Assembly: GCA_017546705.1 (NCBI GenBank) | Contig: JAFYSB010000008.1 | Coordinates: 4,741-68,740 of the forward strand | DNA: 64,000 bases | Direction of reading: 5' to 3' | Origin: Paludibacteraceae bacterium | Lineage (GTDB): Bacteria; Bacteroidota; Bacteroidia; Bacteroidales; Paludibacteraceae | Shown: one piece after another, positions 2,799 through 49,936 of the stretch | How positions within the stretch are numbered: the stretch's first letter is position 1 | How the letters are laid out: each line of letters opens with the position of its first letter | The notes under the pieces: model-generated | Database searches by the model: none | What the model saw: the letters and a program-made list of their open reading frames with translations, nothing else | What the model was told of the DNA's origin: nothing | Position numbers and translations under genes: made by a program

Positions 2799-3701
2799 TT
2801 AAACACAGTACATCTCGTAGGCTTTTTGGGCTTCGTTGCGGAAGATGGCTACCAACTCTTCTGGTTCGCGCACGCGGATATCCGTGCCGTGGGTGCGAAG
2901 TTCTTGTATGAAATCAAGAGTAGGGGCAATATAATATTCGAAGAATGTGTTGCCGTGGAATTGGCGAAGTTCCTTTTGCGAATCGTGCAAAGGCAAGAGA
3001 CGAAGGAACTGTGTGGAAGCGGGTGTTGCTTCGATGATGACTTTGGTAGGTGTTGCGTTGCGGAATACACCATAGTATGGGGCGAAGAATGTTTTGGCAT
3101 CAAACTTCTTAGGATAGATGAAGTTTTGGTCAGTAGGACGCATCGTTTGTACGCGATCCAGGGCATAGATGCGTGTTTCGTTAGGATGTGTGGATGGGCA
3201 ACCCGCTACATACCATCGCTGCTTGAAAACCTTGAGGCAGTAGGGCGACAGGGTCAATTCGTACTGCTCTTGGCGGTTGAAACTGTGGTAGGTGAGTTGC
3301 AGTTGCGTGCGGTGGCGAATAGCATCTACAATGAGACTAAGGTACTGCGTGCCTTCAGGGATATCTTCGTAGAGAACGCAGTCGGTGATGTCCTTGGCTT
3401 GGTCCATCATGGAGTGAACAGCCATGGCATTGAGGAACCATTGGCGTGTGCCACCAGATATATCGTCCTTATTCTCAATGTAATAGACATTACCGCGCGA
3501 CTTACTGCAACGGATGTCTACATCAAAAATCTCTTGTATCTCCTCCTTGTAGCGGTGGAACTTACGTTCGGGGAACTCCTCTTCGTGATTATCGTTGTAG
3601 CGGCAATGTGCCCAACGGCGGTTGATGTCATCGCGGGTGAGATTGCCCGATGCAATGGTGTCGATGAGCCAGAAATAAACGTTTACTTGATGTGCGGCCA
3701 T
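2799..3701 (-). CDS. WYL-domain transcriptional regulator
   Basis: 300 aa. N-terminal HTH-like region. The central QRWYVAGC...RIYALDRV is a WYL-domain signature. There is a C-terminal extension typical of HTH-WYL-WCX regulators. Confidence 0.7.
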   Translation of the reverse strand: MAAHQVNVYFWLIDTIASGNLTRDDINRRWAHCRYNDNHEEEFPERKFHRYKEEIQEIFDVDIRCSKSRGNVYYIENKDDISGGTRQWFLNAMAVHSMMDQAKDITDCVLYEDIPEGTQYLSLIVDAIRHRTQLQLTYHSFNRQEQYELTLSPYCLKVFKQRWYVAGCPSTHPNETRIYALDRVQTMRPTDQNFIYPKKFDAKTFFAPYYGVFRNATPTKVIIEATPASTQFLRLLPLHDSQKELRQFHGNTFFEYYIAPTLDFIQELRTHGTDIRVREPEELVAIFRNEAQKAYEMYCV

Positions 3702-3707
3702 AATTGT

Positions 3708-3735
3708 GTTTAGTCTTTAGAGTTTAGTGTTTAGA
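3708..3735. repeat. GTTTAGT-type heptamer run, copy C (no hairpin)
   Basis: Sequence gtttagtctttagagtttagtgtttaga. It contains the stop codon of the U32 gene (3724-3726) and encodes its last residues (..SKH). Confidence 0.7.
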
Positions 3736-5460
3736 GATGCGCATTTCGCAGTTTTTACAGTCGAACTCGAGGGACAGGCGTGTGCCGTTTTGCAAACGGA
3801 GATAGCGAGGTTCGTTTGCCATAGGGTTGATCTTGCGGCAATGACCTAACTCATGGAGTATGCAGTATTTGCAGGTCATGAGGGCAGTTGGCAGTTGGCA
3901 GTTGACAGTTGACAGTTGACAGTTGGCAGTTCTTATCTCGCATATGCTCGAACGATCACTCGCAGAGCTCGTGTACGATAGTTGAGCGTTGACAGTTGAT
4001 GGTTTGTTAATGACCTCTCTGCGCCATTGGTTGAGTTGGCTGGTTGGAATGAAATATGGGAAAGTGTCGGAGCATGGCTGTTCGTTAGCAAAGACTTGGA
4101 CGTCTTTGGCTACGAAATCCGTATCTCCGAGTTTACTAAGTTGCTGAACGATAGTTTGTAATGCGCGCTGTGGGTTGGTGGCTGGTTGATGCTCAGCCAC
4201 GAAAGTAGCGCTGTAATCTCCTATTGTCAAACGATAACCATCTGCTATAGCCTCAAAGCGAATTGCTGTAGGTATTTTGCGTTCAGCACGAAGCGAACGC
4301 AGAAATTCGTTGTCGAGATTGCGGTATAAGTTAGTGCCGACTTTGGGAAGCGATCCTCCTGACCTCCCTTCAAGGGAGGATGGTTGAAGGTTGGGATAAA
4401 TCCAGTCGCCTTCTATGCGGTTGATAGCGAAACCTTTGTCACCATAGCAAATGCCGTCACCATTGTGGAGGGTAATGCCATGCGCAAGTTCTACGCAGAT
4501 GGCGTTGTGTCGGGTAGCAATGACCTTACCAATCTTCTCGCCAGTGGATTTAGGTGTTTGCCAATTGGCCATGTTGGGGGTGCGACCATGCAAGAAGTAG
4601 TCGGTTTGTCCGCGGTGGAAGGTTTTAGCAGGGTTTGGAGTAAAGTCGTAATGATAGACGGATGGAGTAGATGCCTGTGCCAATGCAGGGTTGCTATCTA
4701 TCAGTTGGTCAAGCAATTGGCGATAGTATGCAACGATGTTGGTGACATAATCGCGGTCTTTTAATCGACCTTCAATCTTGAAAGTGGTCACGCCTGCCTC
4801 TATCATCTGAGCCAGGTGCTGGCTGCGGTCCATATCTTGGAGCGAGAGTAGGTAACGTTGGTGGATAGGGGCGCCATGGATATCCAGAATCTCATTGCCA
4901 TTTTTGTCGAGCAGGTCGTATCGTTGTCGGCATAGTTGTGCGCAACATCCGCGGTTGGCACTACGATCCATGAGTGCCTCAGAGAGGTAACAACGGCCAC
5001 TATAGCTCACGCATAAGGCACCGTGGACAAAGGCCTCGAGTTCGATGGACCCCTCCAACTCCCCTTCAAGGGGAGAGTTTTGTATAGTGTAGTTGATTTC
5101 TCTGATTTGGTCAATGGATAGTTCGCGGGCGAGAACTACGCGGCGGAAGCCCAATTGCTGCAAATGAAGTACTTGCTCAGGGGTACGATTGTCGCATTGT
5201 GTAGAGGCATGCAGGCGAATGGGAGGAAGGTCGTAGTTGAGGAGGTTGAGGTCTTGGATGATGAGTGCATCCACTCCCACCTTATATAACTCGTGCGCGA
5301 GCGCACACGCGCGAGGATATTCGTCGTCGTGGAGTAGGGTGTTGAGCGTTACAAGTACCTGAGCACCAAAGCGATGGGCGTATAGGACCAATTCGGCGAT
5401 GTCTTCTAAGGAGTTGCCTGCTGCTTGGCGCGCACCGAACTCGGGCGCACCGATATACAC
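3724..5460 (-). CDS. U32-family peptidase (YegQ/RlhA-like), repeat-riddled and without a canonical start codon for its conserved N-terminus
   Basis: U32 signature EAFVHGALCVSYSGRCYLSE. The conserved N-terminus SILAPARDLEVGIAAIQAGADAV continues in frame upstream of the ATG at 5460 to ~5535, and there is no ATG/GTG/TTG before an in-frame TGA. At least three in-frame repeat insertions are present. Confidence 0.8.
   Translation of the reverse strand: MYIGAPEFGARQAAGNSLEDIAELVLYAHRFGAQVLVTLNTLLHDDEYPRACALAHELYKVGVDALIIQDLNLLNYDLPPIRLHASTQCDNRTPEQVLHLQQLGFRRVVLARELSIDQIREINYTIQNSPLEGELEGSIELEAFVHGALCVSYSGRCYLSEALMDRSANRGCCAQLCRQRYDLLDKNGNEILDIHGAPIHQRYLLSLQDMDRSQHLAQMIEAGVTTFKIEGRLKDRDYVTNIVAYYRQLLDQLIDSNPALAQASTPSVYHYDFTPNPAKTFHRGQTDYFLHGRTPNMANWQTPKSTGEKIGKVIATRHNAICVELAHGITLHNGDGICYGDKGFAINRIEGDWIYPNLQPSSLEGRSGGSLPKVGTNLYRNLDNEFLRSLRAERKIPTAIRFEAIADGYRLTIGDYSATFVAEHQPATNPQRALQTIVQQLSKLGDTDFVAKDVQVFANEQPCSDTFPYFIPTSQLNQWRREVINKPSTVNAQLSYTSSASDRSSICEIRTANCQLSTVNCQLPTALMTCKYCILHELGHCRKINPMANEPRYLRLQNGTRLSLEFDCKNCEMRISKH
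3885..4000. repeat. CAGTTGA/CAGTTGG heptamer arrays flanking a ~47-nt core, inside the U32 CDS
   Basis: Array 3885-3931 (about 7 units) and array 3979-4000. Translated on the minus strand as ..STVNAQL...ANCQLSTVNCQLPT. Confidence 0.85.
4354..4384. repeat. Small palindromic element (CCTCCCTTCAAGGGAGG core) inside the U32 CDS
   Basis: Divergent relative of the 30-nt element at 5048 and 49243. Encodes ..SSLEGRSGGS.. Confidence 0.6.
5048..5077. repeat. 30-nt palindromic element GACCCCTCCAACTCCCCTTCAAGGGGAGAG inside the U32 CDS
   Basis: 29/30 identical to 49243-49272 in the same plus-strand orientation. Read on the minus strand it gives NSPLEGELEGS, inserted just before the conserved EAFVHGALC motif. 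Confidence 0.85.
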
Positions 5461-6158: not shown

Positions 6159-6179
6159 TGCTAACAGATGGGTAACGAA

Positions 6180-6234
6180 TTGTGCGTTTATTGTGCGTGT
6201 ATTGTGCGTGAATAGTGCGTCTATTGTGCGTGAA
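6180..6234. repeat. 11-bp tandem repeat x5 (TTGTGCGTGAA consensus)
   Basis: Units ttgtgcgttta ttgtgcgtgta ttgtgcgtgaa tagtgcgtcta ttgtgcgtgaa. It lies between the trmH-like start and the rimM stop, and the rimM stop is inside unit 4. Confidence 0.85.
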
Positions 6235-23851: not shown

Positions 23852-23884
23852 ACGGCAACGACACGGCAACGACACGGCAACGAG
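23852..23884. repeat. 11-bp tandem repeat x3 (ACGGCAACGAC)
   Basis: Units acggcaacgac acggcaacgac acggcaacgag, in the intergenic region between rnhB and sppA. Confidence 0.85.
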
Positions 23885-25685: not shown

Positions 25686-26708
25686 ATGAAATTCTTATTG
25701 GCTCCCATAGCATGGATTTATGGTTTCGTCGTATGGCTTCGTAATTTGCTATACGACGACCATATCCTGCATTCTACTCAGGTTAGCATACCTACCATTT
25801 GTGTGGGCAATCTTGCTGTAGGCGGAACAGGCAAAACACCAATGGCAGAGTACTTGATTTCTTTGCTCTCATCTGATTATAAGGTAGCGCTTCTTTCGCG
25901 TGGCTATGGGAGAAAAACAAAAGGCTTTCGTATTGCTAATGAGCATGATACAGCACAAACTATTGGTGATGAACCAATGCAAATCCACACCCATTTCCCC
26001 GATATACCTGTGGCTGTATGCGCCGACCGTGTGAAGGGCGTGAAACGTTTACAACAGTTGTATCCTGATTTGCAATGTGTAATCCTCGATGATGCGTACC
26101 AGCACCGCAAGTTGCGTTGCGGATTCTATGTGCTACTTACGCCTTATGACTGCCTATATACCAATGATCATCTGTTGCCATGGGGTAGGTTGCGCGATTT
26201 GCCTAATCAGAGTCACCGAGCCAATGTGGTGGTAGTGACTAAATGTCCGTCTCAAATGCAACCGATTGACAGACGAATAGTGAGCAATGCGTTGCATTTG
26301 GCATCGTACCAGCATTTGGTTTATTCTTCAATCGGTTATGCACCAATAGCATTGAATGGAACACCATTGCTTGTTACGGGCATTGCTAATCCGTTGCCAT
26401 TATTAGAGCATTTGAAAGCACAATGTCCAGATACCGAGTTGCTTGCATTTCCAGATCACCATGTGTTTACGAAACATGATATCGCTCAGATCATGCACAA
26501 AGCAGAACAATATAGCTGTGTTGTAACCACAGAAAAAGATTATATGCGTTTATTACAGACTCCATTGGTTGAACAGTTGGGTAACAAATTGCAAGTATTA
26601 GCTATTCAAACGGATTTGGGTATTGACAAAGAAGCTTTTGATCGTCAAATCCTTCTCTACGTCAGTGAGAATAACCGCAAGCTGTCAACTATTAACTGTC
26701 AACTGTAA
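25686..26708 (+). CDS. lpxK: Tetraacyldisaccharide 4'-kinase with a repeat-encoded C-terminal tail
   Basis: 340 aa. P-loop VGNLAVGGTGKTP. The last residues ..KLSTINCQL come from the heptamer array. Confidence 0.85.
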   Translation: MKFLLAPIAWIYGFVVWLRNLLYDDHILHSTQVSIPTICVGNLAVGGTGKTPMAEYLISLLSSDYKVALLSRGYGRKTKGFRIANEHDTAQTIGDEPMQIHTHFPDIPVAVCADRVKGVKRLQQLYPDLQCVILDDAYQHRKLRCGFYVLLTPYDCLYTNDHLLPWGRLRDLPNQSHRANVVVVTKCPSQMQPIDRRIVSNALHLASYQHLVYSSIGYAPIALNGTPLLVTGIANPLPLLEHLKAQCPDTELLAFPDHHVFTKHDIAQIMHKAEQYSCVVTTEKDYMRLLQTPLVEQLGNKLQVLAIQTDLGIDKEAFDRQILLYVSENNRKLSTINCQL

Positions 26709-26722
26709 ATTGTCAACTGTCC
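26682..26722. repeat. TCAACTG heptamer array (reverse orientation of the CAGTTGA family)
   Basis: Sequence ctgtcaactattaactgtcaactgtaaattgtcaactgtcc. It spans the lpxK stop and ends 3 nt before the next ATG (26726). Confidence 0.8.
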
Positions 26723-26725
26723 ATC

Positions 26726-28564
26726 ATGAACATCATATCACTCTTAAAACGCTTTGTACCGCCATATCGTTGGCAAGTGGCAGCAAACCTATTTTTCAAT
26801 ATCCTCTCTACGATATTGTCGCTATTCTCATTTGCTACGATTATCCCCGTCTTGCAGATTCTATTTGGCCTTTCAGAGTTGGAGGTTGCTTATACACCTT
26901 TGTCGGATGCTGCCACTATGCAAGAAACAATCAATGTTTTGAAGAATAATTTGTATTATTTCTTGCAGACACAAATTGATACCCATGGTGCGCAATCTGT
27001 ATTGTTACTATTAGGAGCTTGCTTGGTGCTTCTCACGGGTTTCAAGTGCCTCACCGCATGGCTTGCGAACTATTTCATGGTGCCTATACGCACGGGCGTG
27101 CTACGCGACCTGCGCGCGCAATTGTATAAGAAGGTGGTCAGTTTGCCTATCGGTTTCTTTACTGAAGAGCGCAAAGGTGATGTCATGTCGCGCATGACTA
27201 ACGATGTGAATGAGGTGGAGGCGAGTATCATGTCCACATTGGATATGCTATTCAAAGATCCCATCATGATTCTAGTTTATCTCATCACGCTCTTTACTAT
27301 CTCGTGGCAACTCACGCTGTTTGTGCTCGTGTTATTACCTATAGCGGGTTTGTTGATTGGACGTATCGGTCGTTCACTCAAACGTGCTTCTACCAAAGGT
27401 CAAGAACAAAATGCTGAGATTCTTACCCAAATAGATGAAACATTAGGTGGTCTACGTGTAGTTAAAGCCTTCAATGCTGAGGGCAAACTCACCCATCGTT
27501 TTCTCCATCTCATCAATGCCACACGTGCTACGTTCAACCGTATCAACCGCCGCTACTATTTGGCGCACCCTGTATCGGAGTTCTTTGGTACGGCACTCAT
27601 TGCCATTCTCCTATGGTTTGGCGGTACGCTGATCTTGGGTGACCATTCCTCTATTGACGCGGCTACATTCATCTATTACCTCGTGATTTTCTATTCCATT
27701 ATCAATCCTGCCAAAGACCTCAGCAAAGCCACTTATGGCATACGCCGTGGTATGGCTTCGTTGGAGCGAATAGATAAGATACTTAATACGGAAAGCAATA
27801 TTCGTATAGCGGAAAATCCAAAGCAAATAGCAGATTTTCAGTCGGTTATTCGTTATGAGGATGTCTGCTTCTCCTATCAAGCTGATCGCCCTGTGCTCAA
27901 GCATATTAATCTGGATATTCAGAAAGGGCAAACCATTGCTTTGGTAGGGCAATCAGGTAGTGGAAAGACAACAATGGCTGACTTACTACCACGCTTCTAT
28001 GACACTACTGCTGGGCGTATCACTATCGATGGTATAGACATACGAGAACTCAAGACTTTTGACCTTCGTGCCCTTATGGGCAATGTCAATCAGGAGGCGA
28101 TTCTCTTTAATGATACGTTCTATAACAATATTACATTTGGTGTAGAGTCTGCTACGATGGATGAGGTGCGCCATGCTGCGCGTATTGCTAATGCCGATGA
28201 CTTTATCATGGCGACGCCAGACCAATACCAAACGACGATTGGTGACCGAGGCTCACGCCTCAGCGGTGGACAACGCCAACGTATATCCATCGCACGTGCT
28301 ATACTTAAGAATCCACCAATTCTGATTTTGGATGAAGCTACTTCTGCGTTGGATACCGAATCGGAGAAACTAGTACAAGAGGCACTGGAGAATCTAATGA
28401 AGGACCGCACCACGCTGGTAGTAGCGCATCGCTTAAGTACTATTCGTAAGGCTGATCTTATTTGTGTGTTACATGAAGGACAAATCGTAGAAAGAGGTAC
28501 ACACGATGAGTTGTATGCTCTCAATGGTTATTACCGCAAACTAGTTGATATGCAGCAAGAGTAA
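26726..28564 (+). CDS. ABC transporter permease/ATP-binding protein (MsbA-like lipid exporter)
   Basis: 612 aa. Six TM helices. Walker A GQSGSGKTT, LSGGQRQR, ILILDEATSALD. Confidence 0.8.
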   Translation: MNIISLLKRFVPPYRWQVAANLFFNILSTILSLFSFATIIPVLQILFGLSELEVAYTPLSDAATMQETINVLKNNLYYFLQTQIDTHGAQSVLLLLGACLVLLTGFKCLTAWLANYFMVPIRTGVLRDLRAQLYKKVVSLPIGFFTEERKGDVMSRMTNDVNEVEASIMSTLDMLFKDPIMILVYLITLFTISWQLTLFVLVLLPIAGLLIGRIGRSLKRASTKGQEQNAEILTQIDETLGGLRVVKAFNAEGKLTHRFLHLINATRATFNRINRRYYLAHPVSEFFGTALIAILLWFGGTLILGDHSSIDAATFIYYLVIFYSIINPAKDLSKATYGIRRGMASLERIDKILNTESNIRIAENPKQIADFQSVIRYEDVCFSYQADRPVLKHINLDIQKGQTIALVGQSGSGKTTMADLLPRFYDTTAGRITIDGIDIRELKTFDLRALMGNVNQEAILFNDTFYNNITFGVESATMDEVRHAARIANADDFIMATPDQYQTTIGDRGSRLSGGQRQRISIARAILKNPPILILDEATSALDTESEKLVQEALENLMKDRTTLVVAHRLSTIRKADLICVLHEGQIVERGTHDELYALNGYYRKLVDMQQE

Positions 28565-33865: not shown

Positions 33866-33930
33866 GGTGAAAGGGGAAAACTGGAAGGTTAAAAGTGAAA
33901 GGTTAAAGGTTAAAGGTTAGAGGTGAAAGG
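33866..33930. repeat. AGGTTAA heptamer array (~9 units)
   Basis: Units aggtgaa aggggaa aactgga aggttaa aagtgaa aggttaa aggttaa aggttag aggtgaa. It contains the stop (33917-33919) of the minus-strand gene. Confidence 0.85.
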
Positions 33931-34333
33931 CGTGGATTTTTGTACGAAGTATGAGGTAAACGATGCCTAATGCAATGATTATCCAAAGTACAATGGTGCA
34001 GCGTTTGTAGAATGGTGGTATATAGCGCTCAGGGGGGTGTTCTACTACGCGGTCACGATACTCCACGACGTGGATCGTGTCCGCTATAGTTGACAGTTGA
34101 CAGTTGAGAGTTGACAGTTGTTTGTCGCGATAAACTTCCTTCGTGATAAAGACTGTATCGTGGACTATGCGCTCGCGATAGACAATGCTGTCGTGGATAG
34201 TTGACAGTTGAGAGTTGACAGTTGACAGTTGGGAAACGCTGTTGTGATGTACACTGTCAATAGTACACTGTACACTGTCAAGGCTTTTGCATGAAGCAAG
34301 GAATACAAGGAAAAGGAGACAAAGATAACGCAT
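33917..34333 (-). CDS. Small lipoprotein with a C-terminal TM anchor (unimolecular-spanin-like topology), carrying two heptamer-array insertions
   Basis: Start at MRYLCLLFLVFLASC (lipobox). C-terminal TM CTIVLWIIIALGIVYLIL. Internal QLSTVNSQLST and QLSTLNCQLST are encoded by arrays at 34198-34232 and 34087-34120. Confidence 0.55.
   Translation of the reverse strand: MRYLCLLFLVFLASCKSLDSVQCTIDSVHHNSVSQLSTVNSQLSTIHDSIVYRERIVHDTVFITKEVYRDKQLSTLNCQLSTIADTIHVVEYRDRVVEHPPERYIPPFYKRCTIVLWIIIALGIVYLILRTKIHAFHL
34087..34232. repeat. Two CAGTTGA heptamer arrays (34087-34120 and 34198-34232) inside a CDS
   Basis: Sequences tagttgacagttgacagttgagagttgacagttg and tagttgacagttgagagttgacagttgacagttgg. Confidence 0.85.
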
Positions 34334-34350
34334 GACGAGATTATGTTTAA

Positions 34351-34507
34351 AAGACAATTATTGTCAATTTTGACGTCAATTAGTATCAATTTTTTTTAAC
34401 AAAAATACGCTCGTGCCGAGCTACAAAAATATATATAAATCGAAGAACCCATTTTTGTTTTTGCCCATAAGAATGCAGCACACTGCATTAGTGAGCAAAA
34501 CAAAAAT
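34351..34507 (-). promoter_or_regulatory. Repeated terminator-promoter module, copy 1
   Basis: ~160 nt similar to 36084-36240. It has a nested hairpin (TTTTTGTTTTTGC..AATGCAG-loop-CTGCATT..GCAAAACAAAAA) followed on the minus strand by TAnnTTTG-like boxes (TATTTTTG twice), and lies upstream of the ATG at 34333. Confidence 0.55.
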
Positions 34508-45263: not shown

Positions 45264-45841
45264 TTTCCTTGAGCTTCTTGCATACGCTTCATCTTATCCT
45301 CTGCAAATTTGCGGAACTCTTCACGGTTGAATTCGATTTCAAGTTCTTCGTTGCGGCTCAATTGACTGGTCAAATTTTCAATCAATTGTTGTTTTGGAAT
45401 TTGAATAGCAATCCAATACTCAAATAAACCATCTTGTAAAACGAAACCTTTTTCACAGGTTTGTTGTGCATCATTTAATTCTTTTTCTACCAAAGTTGCA
45501 AATTCGCCTTCAATAATGCTTTGTACTTTAGCAGCTTGCGCCTCGCCTGCTACATTACGGCTATAATCAGTAGATAGTCCTTGAACAAAACCTCCTAATT
45601 TCTCACGTACCATAGCCTTGGCATTTTGCAATGCTGCACGACGTGCATTTTGTTGATTAACCGCTGTTGCGGTACCTGTTCCACGGTAATAATCCGCATC
45701 GTCAAATCCATTTTCAGAACATGGAATCTCAATAGCAGTACGTTGATAACCTGGATTTTGTGCTACTTGCTGAGTTTGTTTTTGACTTCCACATGACGCA
45801 AACATACCCACTGCGAGGATTGATAAAAGAAGTTTTTTCAT
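45260..45841 (-). CDS. LPP20-family lipoprotein
   Basis: 193 aa. Lipobox MFASCG. YYRGTGTATAVNQQNARRAALQNAKAMVREKL is typical of LPP20. Coiled-coil C-terminus. Confidence 0.55.
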   Translation of the reverse strand: MKKLLLSILAVGMFASCGSQKQTQQVAQNPGYQRTAIEIPCSENGFDDADYYRGTGTATAVNQQNARRAALQNAKAMVREKLGGFVQGLSTDYSRNVAGEAQAAKVQSIIEGEFATLVEKELNDAQQTCEKGFVLQDGLFEYWIAIQIPKQQLIENLTSQLSRNEELEIEFNREEFRKFAEDKMKRMQEAQGK

Positions 45842-46019: not shown

Positions 46020-46067
46020 TAGTTGACAATTGACAGTTAACAGTTGACAGTTAACGATTGACAATTG
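46020..46067. repeat. CAGTTGA-family heptamer array (~7 units)
   Basis: Sequence tagttgacaattgacagttaacagttgacagttaacgattgacaattg. It accounts for the spurious ORF 45900..46082. Confidence 0.85.
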
Positions 46068-46652: not shown

Positions 46653-47789
46653 TTAGGAATGAGAGATGGAGCAAATCTCTTCTGCCATACCATTGAGAGC
46701 AACGCAGTCTTCGCGAGAGATGTGGTGCTTATCTGGGTCATGTTCCCAAGGACTGAGAATCAAGACACGACCTTCGGCGACGGCATCAAATAGCGCATCG
46801 GTGGGTTTGTAATAATCACGGAAACCATTGTCAGAAAGCACAATAAAAGGATGCTTCTCGGCAAGCAAGACAGACATAACCTCTTTCTCTTTAGGCGAAA
46901 TGAAAGGAGAGACCATAACCGTACCTTGGCGAGCAGCAAGAATACAAGCATTCATATAGTCGCGAAGTGGCTGGGTGTCGCCGTGTTGTTCTGCATCTTT
47001 AACCCACATGCTGCGCACATGGACGGGAGCGAAACATTTATTATGTAACAAGCGGATATTACCTACACCACTATATGAGCGCCCTGCAATCTCAATGCCC
47101 TCTTGCACACGGAAGAAACCTGGCATAATGCGCTTAGTAGCAAGGCGTTGGGGATTATTGATAATATACTGAATAGTGGCAGGTAATTGTCTGCGTTGTC
47201 CCATAGGACGGATATGCGGCATCTCTGTAAAAATAGGAAATAAAGCCCTATATTTTTCTTGACCAATGCGAGATGAAAGCGTGTCTGTGGTGGCTTGCAA
47301 AAGGGACAAAAGTTCGTGGTAGTTTTCCCGACTACAAGTCGTCAAACACCCCACCAATCCACGAGATTGGTCGGGGACCCCGCGGGCAATAGAAGAATTA
47401 TCAATGGGCGAATGAGATATAAGGAAGGAATAGGCACGTCCTATTTTCTTAACACCTTGCCAAAAGCCCTGCACTACACTTTTAATGCCGCGAGGCATCT
47501 TCTCACGCACATACCAGACGGCATGGATATGATCGGGCATTAAACAATAATGCAATACTTGTATTTCAGGGATTCGATTGGGGATATCCCATAACGCATT
47601 TACCAACATTCGACCTAAGGCAGTATATTCTACAGTAGCTTCTTTGGGATCATTGCCTGGGATAAGAAGCGTGCCTAAGAGCGGTTCGCGAGAGGGAATG
47701 GTGAGGGTAATATGATACAAGCCGACACCTTTCCATGTTGTGCCAGGCTCTTGCCATTGCCAGTTGTTATCGGAGTGGGAGGGCGTCAT
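46653..47789 (-). CDS. HUH/Y1 transposase-family protein (IS200/RAYT-like) with a C-terminal extension
   Basis: Start moved to MTPSHSDNNW (the -7 box at 47816-47823 lies inside the longer ORF). HUH motif LMPDHIHAVWYV. Downstream TIQYIINNPQRLATKRI matches the RAYT/COG1943 Y-x-x-x-N-P motif. About 140 extra C-terminal residues are of unknown fold. Confidence 0.65.
   Translation of the reverse strand: MTPSHSDNNWQWQEPGTTWKGVGLYHITLTIPSREPLLGTLLIPGNDPKEATVEYTALGRMLVNALWDIPNRIPEIQVLHYCLMPDHIHAVWYVREKMPRGIKSVVQGFWQGVKKIGRAYSFLISHSPIDNSSIARGVPDQSRGLVGCLTTCSRENYHELLSLLQATTDTLSSRIGQEKYRALFPIFTEMPHIRPMGQRRQLPATIQYIINNPQRLATKRIMPGFFRVQEGIEIAGRSYSGVGNIRLLHNKCFAPVHVRSMWVKDAEQHGDTQPLRDYMNACILAARQGTVMVSPFISPKEKEVMSVLLAEKHPFIVLSDNGFRDYYKPTDALFDAVAEGRVLILSPWEHDPDKHHISREDCVALNGMAEEICSISHS
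47322..47407. repeat. Interrupted REP unit inside the RAYT-like CDS
   Basis: cccgactacaagtcg + 43-nt insert + ggcaatagaagaattatcaatgg, translated in frame as ..DNSSIARGVPDQSRGLVGCLTTCSRENY.. Confidence 0.65.
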
Positions 47790-47815
47790 AAAGGGGGAAT
47801 ATTGAAATAATGGTG

Positions 47816-47823
47816 CAAAGGTA
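47816..47823 (-). promoter_or_regulatory. -7 promoter box TACCTTTG for the RAYT-like gene
   Basis: The plus strand reads CAAAGGTA, 27 nt upstream of the ATG at 47789. Confidence 0.55.
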
Positions 47824-47885
47824 GTGAAAATTTGGCAGATGAGCAAATTTTGGATAGGAAAAGTAGATGATTATAAGGGTAATGG

Positions 47886-49703: not shown

Positions 49704-49903
49704 GAGCGAGATTGTATGTTCCATTTGAACAACTAAAGGGCAAAATCGGTGAAGATTATTATGCCCGAGTATTGTACGGGAAACAGGTGATTCAACGATG
49801 TCCGAGACGATATAAGCCTCCTACACCAGCACAACTGGAAGCGAGAAGACGGTTTGCGGAAAAATATGGGAAAGGTAGGGGGAAAGTACTGGATGGTAAT
49901 TGA
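49700..49903 (+). CDS. Small basic hypothetical protein (paralog family)
   Basis: 67 aa. LKGKIGEDYYARVLYGKQVIQR...PPTPAQLEARRRFAEKYG. Confidence 0.45.
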   Translation: MRARLYVPFEQLKGKIGEDYYARVLYGKQVIQRCPRRYKPPTPAQLEARRRFAEKYGKGRGKVLDGN

Positions 49904-49936
49904 GTGGTAACGAAGTGGTATCGACGTGGTAACGAG
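49893..49936. repeat. 11-bp tandem repeat x4 (GTGGTAACGAN)
   Basis: Units atggtaattga gtggtaacgaa gtggtatcgac gtggtaacgag. The core GGTAACGA resembles GGCAACGA of the 23852 array. Confidence 0.8.

Follow-up and report, generated by a model that had tools for sequence, protein, structure and literature searches.

Dispersed heptamer repeats have been reported in bacteria since 1990, when Mazel et al. are said to have described the STRR heptamers of the cyanobacteria Calothrix and Nostoc. To our knowledge, the spread of one heptamer unit to many loci, and any function of such repeats, are still unexplained. Elhai et al. reportedly found in 2008 that the SDR elements of Nostoc punctiforme, which are 21–27 nt long, are nested in tandem heptamers. 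Ogata et al., writing in Science in 2000, reportedly described Rickettsia palindromic elements that are inserted in frame in many unrelated housekeeping genes, the extra peptides being tolerated. These elements are palindromic units of 100–150 bp, have a fixed length and are thought to be mobile.

Heptamer direct repeats of the unit TAACTGA were found in marine Beggiatoaceae, some cyanobacteria and five Bacteroidetes, including Paludibacter propionicigenes (MacGregor 2015, PMC4679880). They occur in sets of 2–6 units, overwhelmingly in intergenic DNA just upstream of start codons, and a regulatory role was proposed. The unit encodes stops on one strand and is translatable on the other (LSVISYQ), which was named as a major factor for repeat location (PMC4679880). 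The G-rich heptamers (GGGAATC)n of Xanthomonas and (GGGGAYT)n of Nostoc form dispersed arrays of 2–26 units with variable copy number; they are enriched in non-coding DNA and depleted on the coding strand, and they fold into G-quadruplexes (Rehm 2015, PMC4692102). The phase-variable contingency SSRs of host-adapted pathogens (Moxon-type) have units of 1–5 nt that change in number by slippage, lie in surface and virulence genes, and make use of out-of-frame states (PMC4692102).

Here we describe arrays of the heptamer TCAACTG (CAGTTGA on the other strand) in an uncultured Paludibacteraceae bacterium of the herbivore hindgut, starting from a 64,000-nt stretch of one contig (the window). Like TAACTGA, TCAACTG is a single heptamer found genome-wide, with a sporadic, lineage-specific distribution, no predicted structure and AACTG as the core of its unit. 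It differs in that about half of the long arrays lie inside housekeeping ORFs, that both orientations occur there, with purging of stops, and that alleles change in steps of three units. As with the STRR and G-rich heptamers, the arrays are dispersed over the genome and variable in copy number. The unit TCAACTG, however, is not rich in G; it folds less well than shuffled sequence and is often found in coding DNA.

Tandem heptamers in the window

Seven tandem CAGTTGR dimers are present in the window, compared to 0.00 expected from 100 dinucleotide-preserving shuffles. The tandem arrangement is the carrier of this signal, because the lone heptamer is only mildly enriched (28 vs 17.8). TRF scored period-7 arrays at five sites (3883–3931, 26682–26721, 34088–34120, 34199–34231 and 46023–46067), with 4.7–7.0 copies (7.0 copies and 95% matches at the first), and the degenerate array at 3977–4000 was recognised by direct reading of the letters. 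All six arrays listed in the first-pass annotation, which was made from the letters of the window, are thus present, and the gene context that it gave them (U32 peptidase, LpxK tail, small lipoprotein, non-coding site) agrees with ours. The features are as follows.

3724..5460, minus strand: U32-family peptidase gene, encoding Peptidase_U32, DUF3656 and a C-terminal Cys-rich module; the inter-module linker is made of three repeat parts
3883..3931, minus strand: heptamer array of 7 units, AACTGYC on the coding (minus) strand, translated ...RTANCQLSTVNCQLPTA in the U32 linker
3932..3976, minus strand: 45-nt core, GTACACGAGCTCTGCGAGTGATCGTTCGAGCATATGCGAGATAAG on the minus strand, between the heptamers, translated ...YTSSASDRSSICEIR
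3977..4000, minus strand: degenerate 3-unit array TCAACTG TCAACGC TCAACTA, translated PSTVNAQLS
26682..26722, plus strand: heptamer array that fills the LpxK-to-MsbA-like spacer and supplies the last 7 LpxK codons (LSTINCQL)
33917..34357, minus strand: small lipoprotein gene with a lipobox, DS/T-V-x-x-R-E/D repeats, a PPERYIPPFYKRCT motif and a C-terminal TM helix
34087..34120, minus strand: heptamer array in the second variable segment of the lipoprotein, translated …DKQLSTLNCQLSTIA…
34198..34232, minus strand: heptamer array in the first variable segment of the lipoprotein, translated …VSQLSTVNSQLSTI…
46020..46067, minus strand: non-coding array with units of the TTAACTG/TCAATTG variant subfamily; it lies in the long leader that precedes an operon starting at 45841

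Read directly, three TCAACTG units encode S-T-V-N-C-Q-L whatever the frame, and three CAGTTGA units contain a TGA in all frames. The frame logic proposed earlier for the two strands is therefore correct. Where the CAGTTGA orientation is open it gives a different peptide, QLTVDSL or QLTVDS.

The LpxK gene (25686–26708, plus strand) ends ...NNRKLSTINCQL*, with a stop codon that derives from a TAA-bearing variant of the heptamer, and the following ATG is at 26726. The LpxK-tail site carries a shorter array in congener G056 and no array in G007, G012 and G013. The small lipoprotein, for which no Pfam match was found, belongs to a multi-copy family: this genome encodes at least four paralogues, and 22 of 60 congeners have homologues. 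The array at 46020–46067 is overlapped only by a chance ORF of 60 aa.

A repeat-built linker in the U32 peptidase

Across the linker, the translation of the U32 ORF (3724–5460, minus strand) reads ...INKPSTVNAQLSYTSSASDRSSICEIRTANCQLSTVNCQLPTALMTCKYC.... The first-pass annotation took this segment for an insertion of ~38 aa. It is repeat-built, but it replaces a native segment: U32 proteins of Bacteroides and Dysgonomonas have ~75 aa at the linker site that are gone from this genus, in which various repeat-built linkers bridge the gap. The segment is a repeat-built linker in place of the native one, and a plain insertion into an otherwise intact protein does not describe it. The U32 gene of several sister species is split into two ORFs at this point. 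The AlphaFold model of the protein has pLDDT <50 over residues 516–591, in a model that is poor as a whole (mean pLDDT 57.7, pTM 0.45).

The degenerate array at 3977–4000 is invariant across 41/41 related protein clusters, in which the right-hand array measures 10, 17, 24 or 45 aa (17, 15, 3 and 6 clusters, respectively). At the DNA level, conspecific alleles have 4, 7, 10 or 16 units, i.e. steps of three heptamers (7 aa).

Genome-wide census and host genes

The (TCAACTG)n family comprises about 60 clusters on 36 contigs of the 2.1-Mb genome; these and all other counts are lower bounds, as the genome is a MAG (90% complete, 82 contigs), and array lengths are those of short-read assemblies. The loci have a common repertoire of variants (TCAACTC, TAAACTG, TTAACTG and TCAATTG). 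Repeats with periods of 7, 14, 21 or 28 make up 245 of the 707 tandem repeats in the genome, and many different heptamer units are found among them. With gene calls that, beyond the Pfam-verified set, come from a crude home-made ORF scorer, 15 of 29 TRF-scored TCAACTG arrays and 61 of the 245 period-7 arrays overall are gene-interior.

The arrays are located in the gaps of operons, in the tails of genes, in linkers between domains and in loops of essential enzymes, and some lie immediately 5' of start codons. Thirteen arrays of at least 26 nt are in frame within Pfam-verified housekeeping genes, including those for SerRS, MetRS, TatD, RibBA, MnmA and YbeY, which bears out the earlier description of DNA repeats translated as STVNCQL-type peptides within genuine conserved genes. 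Pfam domains flank or span the arrays in SerRS, MetRS, UvrA, RNB, TatD, RibBA, MnmA, YbeY, DHH, HAD, M28, PulA, GH77/CBM20, DUF4293 and U32. The array lies between Pfam domains in RibBA, SerRS and U32, and lengthens the domain match in TatD (285 vs 252) and DHH (163 vs 124). An array called as in-gene in TrkH was reclassified because relatives match only downstream of it; it is probably 5' of the true start.

The presence of in-frame repeats within several unrelated housekeeping genes resembles the Rickettsia palindromic elements, but TCAACTG forms a microsatellite that is not palindromic, varies in length and has neither defined ends nor a stable hairpin. Loss of mismatch repair was rejected as the cause of instability, as MutS and MutL are present and the frames are open.

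Array orientation within genes

In-gene arrays were initially thought to be always in the open orientation. This holds in the window; in the genome-wide census by strand relative to CDS, however, 3 of 16 long in-gene arrays are stop-oriented. They are found in UvrA, in an RNase R-like (RNB) nuclease and in an IorA-like protein, and every in-frame TGA has been mutated away (to TTA, GGA, TGG or CGA in CAGTTGA-orientation genes). Stop-oriented arrays in intact genes are thus not as common as open ones: 13 gene-interior arrays of at least 26 nt are open (15 with both lipoprotein arrays) against these three, all of them TGA-purged. Across all heptamer families, 54 of 127 arrays are gene-interior if the unit is stop-free on at least one strand, compared to 7 of 118 if it is closed on both (Fisher p=6e-12). 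As gene occupancy tracks stop-freeness and the stop-oriented arrays are purged of TGA, the orientation rule is a survival filter left by purifying selection and not a targeting rule; TCAACTG persists in ORFs because it is stop-free.

The idea that the STVNCQL heptad is a selected protein motif, which many proteins would have taken up as, for example, a module rich in beta structure or containing Cys, is largely refuted. We give this idea almost no credence, even though the peptide recurs in at least 14 proteins with its frame kept and the comparable translation LSVISYQ was predicted to be beta-rich (MacGregor 2015, PMC4679880). TCAACTG is equally common in non-coding spacers, its other orientation encodes the unrelated QLTVDSL, and the orthologous sites of sister species hold unrelated peptides or nothing; moreover, the functions of the host proteins are unrelated and the number of copies varies freely.

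Length variation within genes

The TatD array also varies, encoding 10, 17, 24, 31, 38 or 45 aa among conspecific alleles; at the DNA level, alleles of 3, 6 and 15 units were found, plus an empty allele that reads QLDNPL. Length changes inside genes were seen only as multiples of three units (21 nt, 7 aa).

Replication slippage would alter the number of units here as it does in contingency SSRs. As each single-unit change of 7 nt shifts the frame, the arrays could be phase-variation loci at which a one-unit change switches the host gene or splits and fuses modules, and the position of the U32 linker, at the very point where sister species have a split gene, would suit such a role, as would the arrays that lie just upstream of start codons. 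We regard this as very unlikely. The hosts include the essential single-copy SerRS, MetRS, RibBA and YbeY, in which an off state would be lethal, and all alleles recovered from the protein collection are in frame (41/41 for U32 and about 20 for TatD). In addition, no heptamer array was found at the junction of the split U32 genes in the sister species. The arrays thus differ from contingency SSRs in having a 7-nt unit in essential enzymes and, in the protein collection, only in-frame alleles.

The 45-nt core and the flanks of the arrays

The ~47-nt core noted between the U32 arrays does lie between them, but is 45 nt long and a small dispersed repeat in its own right. This genome has three copies of it, one in the U32 linker and the others on contigs C59 and C23, all directly flanked by CAACTG / AACTGYC units. 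The core is also present in two congeners, with one copy in G034 and four in G049; once it occurs as three tandem copies. It may resemble the Nostoc SDR elements in being a very short dispersed unit embedded in heptamers. It differs from them, as far as their description goes, in its length of 45 nt and in having only three copies, one of which is translated. An RNA element was rejected as its identity: the surroundings of the three copies gave no Rfam match, the core folds no better than shuffles (z = 0.0 and -0.19) and the array region folds worse (z = +2.4).

Conserved flanks, terminal inverted repeats and target duplications were absent from 33 arrays examined with 70-nt flanks, and insertion of a MITE or transposon was rejected on these grounds. 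One array on contig C44 abuts REP-like hairpins.

Nonetheless, a small mobile element might use the arrays as preferred targets or leave them as by-products. The moving part would then be the core, or a hairpin repeat mobilised by a RAYT-like HUH enzyme (46653–47846), with the heptamers serving as landing pad or footprint, as was reportedly found for the SDR elements nested in Nostoc heptamers (Elhai et al. 2008). The direct flanking of all three core copies by heptamers, together with the two congeners that have the core, would fit such an element, as would the array at 46020–46067, about 600 nt from the RAYT-like gene, and the hairpins on C44. However, more than 55 arrays have no adjacent core or hairpin, the core does not fold (z about 0), terminal inverted repeats and target duplications are lacking, and a single target site cannot account for the many different heptamer units in the same genome. 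We therefore consider a mobile element of this kind improbable.

Orthologous sites in sister species

The unit itself is lineage-specific. (TCAACTG)3 has 125 matches in this genome, 41 in G043, 32 in G056 and 0–8 in most of 60 congeners, and (GCCAATA)3 has 2 matches here compared to 75–90 in G035, G045 and G071. The reversed-pattern control is valid for GCCAATA and uninformative for TCAACTG, a mirror repeat that read backwards is its own rotation.

Orthologous sites were located in five genomes with one chimeric query of 17 array-flanking segments. The arrays at the SerRS, MetRS, RibBA, YbeY, DUF4293, RNB and TatD sites are absent from all sister species compared, and alignments of SerRS, MetRS, RibBA, YbeY, TatD and DUF4293 confirm that the arrays were added relative to orthologues and are not ancient domains. 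In PulA, MnmA and UvrA the array stands in place of a native segment of equal length, with no gain in length, which is compatible with conversion and also with insertion followed by deletion. Other heptamers occupy the DHH site in sister species (TCAACTC in G013 and G007, TTCGCCT in G012 and CTCGCCT in G056), and the GH77 site of G056 has GCCAATA.

Could each array have arisen independently, by slippage in place from a local seed, with the common unit due to a mutational or polymerase bias? At the SerRS and TatD sites, the native sequence already has CAACTT or CAATTG (Gln-Leu) at the start of the array, and one-unit proto-arrays exist in sister species at the DHH and TatD sites; a polymerase-linked preference for 7-nt slippage was proposed by Mrazek et al. 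2007, as related in PMC4679880. On the other hand, no seed was found at the MetRS, RibBA, YbeY and DUF4293 sites in any relative compared, and other units dominate in sister species that share the polymerase family and are similar in composition. About 60 loci with one unit and the same variant repertoire are also difficult to reconcile with independent events, and we think it unlikely that transfer between loci played no part. DNA-level copying between loci is inferred because independent slippage cannot produce the same unit 60 times.

A further step may be contemplated tentatively, although we would not favour it at present. In each species a genome-specific drive might write or homogenise one heptamer at many unlinked permissive sites, through inter-locus concerted evolution or templated synthesis by a putative enzyme. 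Seen in this way, the arrays would amount to a microsatellite that propagates itself, a new class of mobile DNA that has no ends, and would not simply add up from independent slippage events. Such a drive is supported by the units found at orthologous sites, TCAACTG here as opposed to TCAACTC, TTCGCCT, CTCGCCT or GCCAATA in sister species, and by the sharing of one unit among unlinked sites in one genome.

Discussion

Taken together, the arrays very probably belong to one family of a dispersed, slippage-prone heptanucleotide microsatellite system of the STRR/TAACTGA kind, which is very active in this genus. Of the features of the STRR/TAACTGA/LSSR class, they show at least three head-to-tail copies (up to 15 units in TatD), many unlinked loci, a sporadic distribution and copy-number polymorphism between strains; the predominantly intergenic location is the one that they do not share. 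This genome is an unusually gene-invasive version of bacterial heptamer repeats.

The arrays grow and shrink among conspecific strains, with only multiples of three units seen within genes, and they take up any spacer in which arbitrary sequence is tolerated. New loci may be seeded by copying from existing arrays, through ectopic conversion or through insertion; CAACTG/CAATTG-like Gln-Leu codons are possible sites of nucleation. The STVNCQL and QLTVDS peptides would be tolerated by-products and not a selected product, although the peptide may conceivably have a structural role.

Because each single-unit slip within an essential enzyme is a frameshift, selection and mutation are cleanly separable in these repeats. 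Dozens of close species have different dominant units at the same sites, so that a tree can be used to trace how arrays were gained and lost and how units turned over, and an allelic series is already visible in conspecific metagenomes. The arrays can fuse or extend ORFs, as in the LpxK tail and the U32 linker, and a large part of the between-strain variation in protein length in these genomes has them as a main source. Annotation, the assignment of orthologues and the typing of strains will be confused by them.

Heptamer arrays in the window

Tandem dimers of the heptamer CAGTTGR occur seven times in the window vs none in 100 dinucleotide-preserving shuffles; the lone heptamer is in weak excess (28 observed vs 17.8 expected). 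The arrays and their surroundings, placed with Tandem Repeats Finder (TRF) or by direct reading of the sequence, are:

3724-5460 (-), U32 peptidase ORF with Peptidase_U32 and DUF3656 domains, reading ...REVINKPSTVNAQLSYTSSASDRSSICEIRTANCQLSTVNCQLPTALMTCKYCIL...
3883-3931, period-7 array, 7 copies, 95% matches (TRF)
3977-4000, degenerate three-unit heptamer array (direct reading)
25686-26708 (+), LpxK, C-terminus ...NNRKLSTINCQL*
26682-26721, period-7 array (TRF)
33917-34357 (-), ORF with a lipobox and two arrays inside
34088-34120, period-7 array (TRF)
34199-34231, period-7 array (TRF)
46020-46067, non-coding heptamer array (period 7 at 46023-46067 in TRF)

By direct reading, the unit TCAACTG is free of stops in every cyclic phase and encodes the peptide S-T-V-N-C-Q-L, while its complement CAGTTGA carries TGA in all three frames. 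The first-pass annotation was thus right about the positions of the arrays, this frame logic and the gene context. The stop codon of LpxK comes from a TAA-bearing variant unit, and the ATG of the downstream gene lies at 26726.

An array of the heptamer GTTTAGA (3708-3736), which has stops on both strands, spans the U32 stop codon and occupies the spacer between U32 and a WYL-domain gene (2799-3701). Read backwards, TCAACTG is a rotation of itself, so that any TCAACTG array is a perfect mirror repeat and the reversed-pattern control of our genome pattern search is uninformative.

Genome-wide distribution and host genes

All genomes compared are metagenome-assembled genomes (MAGs). The one carrying the window (2.1 Mb, 82 contigs, 90% complete, 43.6% G+C) has its nearest U32 genes in MAGs labelled Paludibacteraceae from hindgut and faeces of roe deer, sheep, buffalo, yak and cattle. 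Non-triplet tandem repeats are abundant in it: 245 of 707 TRF arrays have a period of 7, 14, 21 or 28, and 156 a period of 11, 22 or 33. At least ten heptamer families are present, the largest being AAACACT with 42 arrays and TCAACTG with 29 at the TRF threshold. The period 11/22/33 repeats form a second large class (e.g. the ACGTAGGATAT family, 14 arrays; in the window 6179-6232, 23852-23883 and 49903-49935), only 8 of the 156 being gene-interior.

The strand census that the first-pass annotation had proposed, made by fuzzy search of the whole genome for two adjacent units, found this one unit dispersed to 60 clusters on 36 contigs. Host ORFs were extracted around TCAACTG arrays of at least 26 nt and compared with Pfam; gene calls beyond this set rely on a simple ORF scorer based on codon usage. 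Thirteen such arrays lie inside genes in the open orientation: seryl-tRNA synthetase (SerRS), methionyl-tRNA synthetase (MetRS), TatD (array of 105 nt, 36 aa), RibBA, MnmA, YbeY, a DHH phosphoesterase, a HAD hydrolase, an M28 peptidase, pullulanase (PulA), a GH77/CBM20 enzyme, a DUF4293 membrane protein and U32. By Pfam, the array falls between domains in RibBA, SerRS and U32, and stretches the domain match in TatD (285 residues over 252 model positions) and DHH (163 over 124).

Two further in-gene arrays lie in the two variable segments of the small lipoprotein (33917-34357), which is a real gene: the genome has at least four paralogues, and 22 of 60 congeners have homologues. The multi-copy family (also at C55:27834-28220, C75:3892-4254 and C45:1344-1700, contigs of the same genome) comprises proteins of ~140-160 aa in which D-S/T-V/I-x-x-R-E/D strands recur; they share a conserved PPERYIPPFYKRCT motif, carry a TM helix at the C-terminus and matched nothing in Pfam. 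An array 5' of TrkH (contig C23, 41614-41655) lengthens the apparent TrkH ORF by 40 codons; relatives align only from a downstream Met, so open-strand arrays can yield spurious N-terminal extensions in annotation.

Orientation and stop codons

The first-pass annotation had every in-gene array in the open orientation, which holds in the window and fails genome-wide: long in-gene arrays, lipoprotein included, are 15 open and 3 closed (two-sided binomial p ~0.008, hand calculation). The three closed arrays are in an IorA-like gene (VVDSLQLTVDRGQLTV), UvrA (IDSLQLIVDSWQ) and an RNB nuclease (SLQLTVDSLQLKVDSGQLR), and in all of them each would-be in-frame TGA is now TTA, GGA, TGG or CGA. Other stop-orientation arrays terminate genes, an ACPS gene ending in QLTVNS* and a sulfatase in QLTVDN*. 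Equal occurrence of the stop orientation inside intact genes, which had been named as the outcome that would speak against the rule, is one that perfect arrays could never give; the exceptions match what selection predicts.

The comparison of all heptamer families in the genome is a stronger test than the 15:3 split. When the unit lacks stops on at least one strand, 54 of 127 arrays lie inside genes; when both strands carry stops, 7 of 118 do (Fisher p = 6e-12). Array origin is therefore independent of coding, and the orientation bias is a survival filter in which selection purges frame-breaking arrays.

Comparison with sister species

Fourteen array sites were compared with the orthologous sites of five congeners, and the TatD site with ~17 congeners and 11 other genomes of the same order. 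This alignment, likewise proposed earlier, showed no array at the SerRS, MetRS, RibBA, YbeY, DUF4293, RNB and TatD sites in any sister species examined, which carry a short native loop or an unrelated insert there. At DHH, HAD, UvrA, M28, GH77 and the LpxK tail, some sister species have a shorter or decayed array or another heptamer (DHH: TCAACTC in G013 and G007, TTCGCCT in G012, CTCGCCT in G056; GH77: GCCAATA-type in G056; LpxK: a shorter TCAATTG/TCAACTG array in G056). In PulA, MnmA and UvrA the array stands in place of a native segment of equal length. This species thus gained arrays after its split from the nearest sampled relatives.

The TCAACTG unit is lineage-specific: (TCAACTG)3 with at most two mismatches has 125 matches here, 41 in G043, 32 in G056 and 0-8 in most of 60 species, and (GCCAATA)3 has 2 here vs 75-90 in G035, G045 and G071. 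Together, the site and genus scans indicate permissive sites re-used genus-wide, with one dominant unit per species.

The dominant heptamer family elsewhere in the genus (e.g. G035, G045, G071, G041, G012) is (GCCAATA)n, stop-free solely on the TATTGGC strand. Another in-frame repeat, encoding SNSPKGVPYPIAERPIPYKG or SPQGVQYPIPNS, occupies the TatD loop of G007, G008 and G014 (loci L024-L026) and U32 linkers of sister species (P0052-P0078); as deduced from the peptide, it would be a CCCCAAGGGG-type palindrome at the DNA level.

Copy-number alleles

The copy-number variation that the first-pass annotation had suggested looking for is present in assembled data, at strain level, in U32 and TatD, and all length steps equal three heptamers. 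Among 41 protein clusters with at least 90% identity to the U32 protein and the same linker, the left part of the linker is constant and the right-hand array measures 10, 17, 24 or 45 residues (17, 15, 3 and 6 clusters); at the DNA level three metagenome contigs have 4, 10 and 16 units and the window 7. In TatD proteins the array measures 10, 17, 24, 31, 38 or 45 residues; an empty allele (DARMQLDNPLIAIGEIG) also occurs, and the DNA alleles have 0, 3, 6 and 15 units.

The U32 linker and its 45-nt core

In U32 proteins of Bacteroides luti, Dysgonomonas and Prevotellaceae, ~75 conserved native residues separate the DUF3656 region from the C-terminal Cys-rich module; this genus has lost that segment. 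In the 120 closest proteins the gap is spanned by linkers of 30-72 residues, whose repeats differ by lineage (STVNCQL here; LQRSD, YSEAP or SPQGVQYP elsewhere). Several sister species have the gene split in two at this position (L147-L153, L165; junction ~2410-2530 in locus coordinates): the large ORF stops after NQWRR..., and the Cys-rich module has its own ATG (~57 aa, MTCKYCIL...CKNCEM), often with a TAATG stop/start overlap (…TAATGAC…). Distant homologues encode the whole protein, including the conserved ~75-aa segment, in a single ORF. Given the lost segment, varied linkers and split genes, the repeat-built stretch is a spacer between domains that is read through and where any sequence, even a stop, is tolerated. 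A repeat-built segment does precede the Cys-rich module, as first described; rather than a simple insertion, it replaces the lost residues. The AlphaFold model of the protein is of poor quality.

The 45-nt core between the two U32 arrays (3932-3976) is a dispersed repeat, with two more copies in the genome (C59:17239-17283 and C23:45620-45664), all three adjoining heptamers. G034 has one copy and G049 four, of which three lie in tandem 59 nt apart (locus L116, contig C180). It showed no fold and matched no Rfam family. The core consists of two tandem half-units (CGAGC-n3/4-GCGAG), the second a purine-rich mirror repeat whose symmetry is perfect at C59 and C23 (GAGCGTATGCGAG) and broken by a single base in the window copy (GAGCATATGCGAG); copies vary only in the loop between the arms (RTAT, GAAA, AAAC, AAAG). 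Two shorter relatives (ATCGTTCGAGCC...GCGAGATAAGAAC) lie on contig C10 (~300-400).

Origin of the arrays and relation to known repeats

The 60 loci have a common variant set (TCAACTC, TAAACTG, TTAACTG, TCAATTG), and congeners make other units. New loci would have been seeded by copying from existing arrays, since independent slippage would not give one unit and one variant set at 60 loci. Arrays may nucleate at pre-existing CAACTT/CAATTG (Gln-Leu) codons, as the SerRS and TatD sites suggest; MetRS, RibBA and YbeY give no such hint. Loss of mismatch repair was rejected as a cause, MutS and MutL being present with open frames. We found no enzyme for dispersal; nothing ties a RAYT-like gene close to one array to the heptamers.

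TAACTGA heptamer sets are described in Beggiatoaceae, cyanobacteria and five Bacteroidetes including Paludibacter; they have stops on one strand and are translatable on the other, which shapes their distribution (MacGregor 2015, PMC4679880). Those sets are short and nearly all intergenic, whereas 13 TCAACTG arrays of at least 26 nt lie inside Pfam-checked genes. G-rich heptamers are depleted in coding DNA (Rehm 2015, PMC4692102). As Mrazek 2007 is cited in PMC4679880, heptamers are over-represented among long SSRs and in-gene SSR units are multiples of three. Our literature search found no paper on such in-gene heptamer arrays in Bacteroidales. The classic in-frame selfish repeats are the Rickettsia palindromic elements (RPEs). 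RPEs are palindromic and of fixed length, whereas the TCAACTG arrays are a non-triplet microsatellite that is RPE-like in behaviour; the TCAACTG case thus joins these two phenomena.
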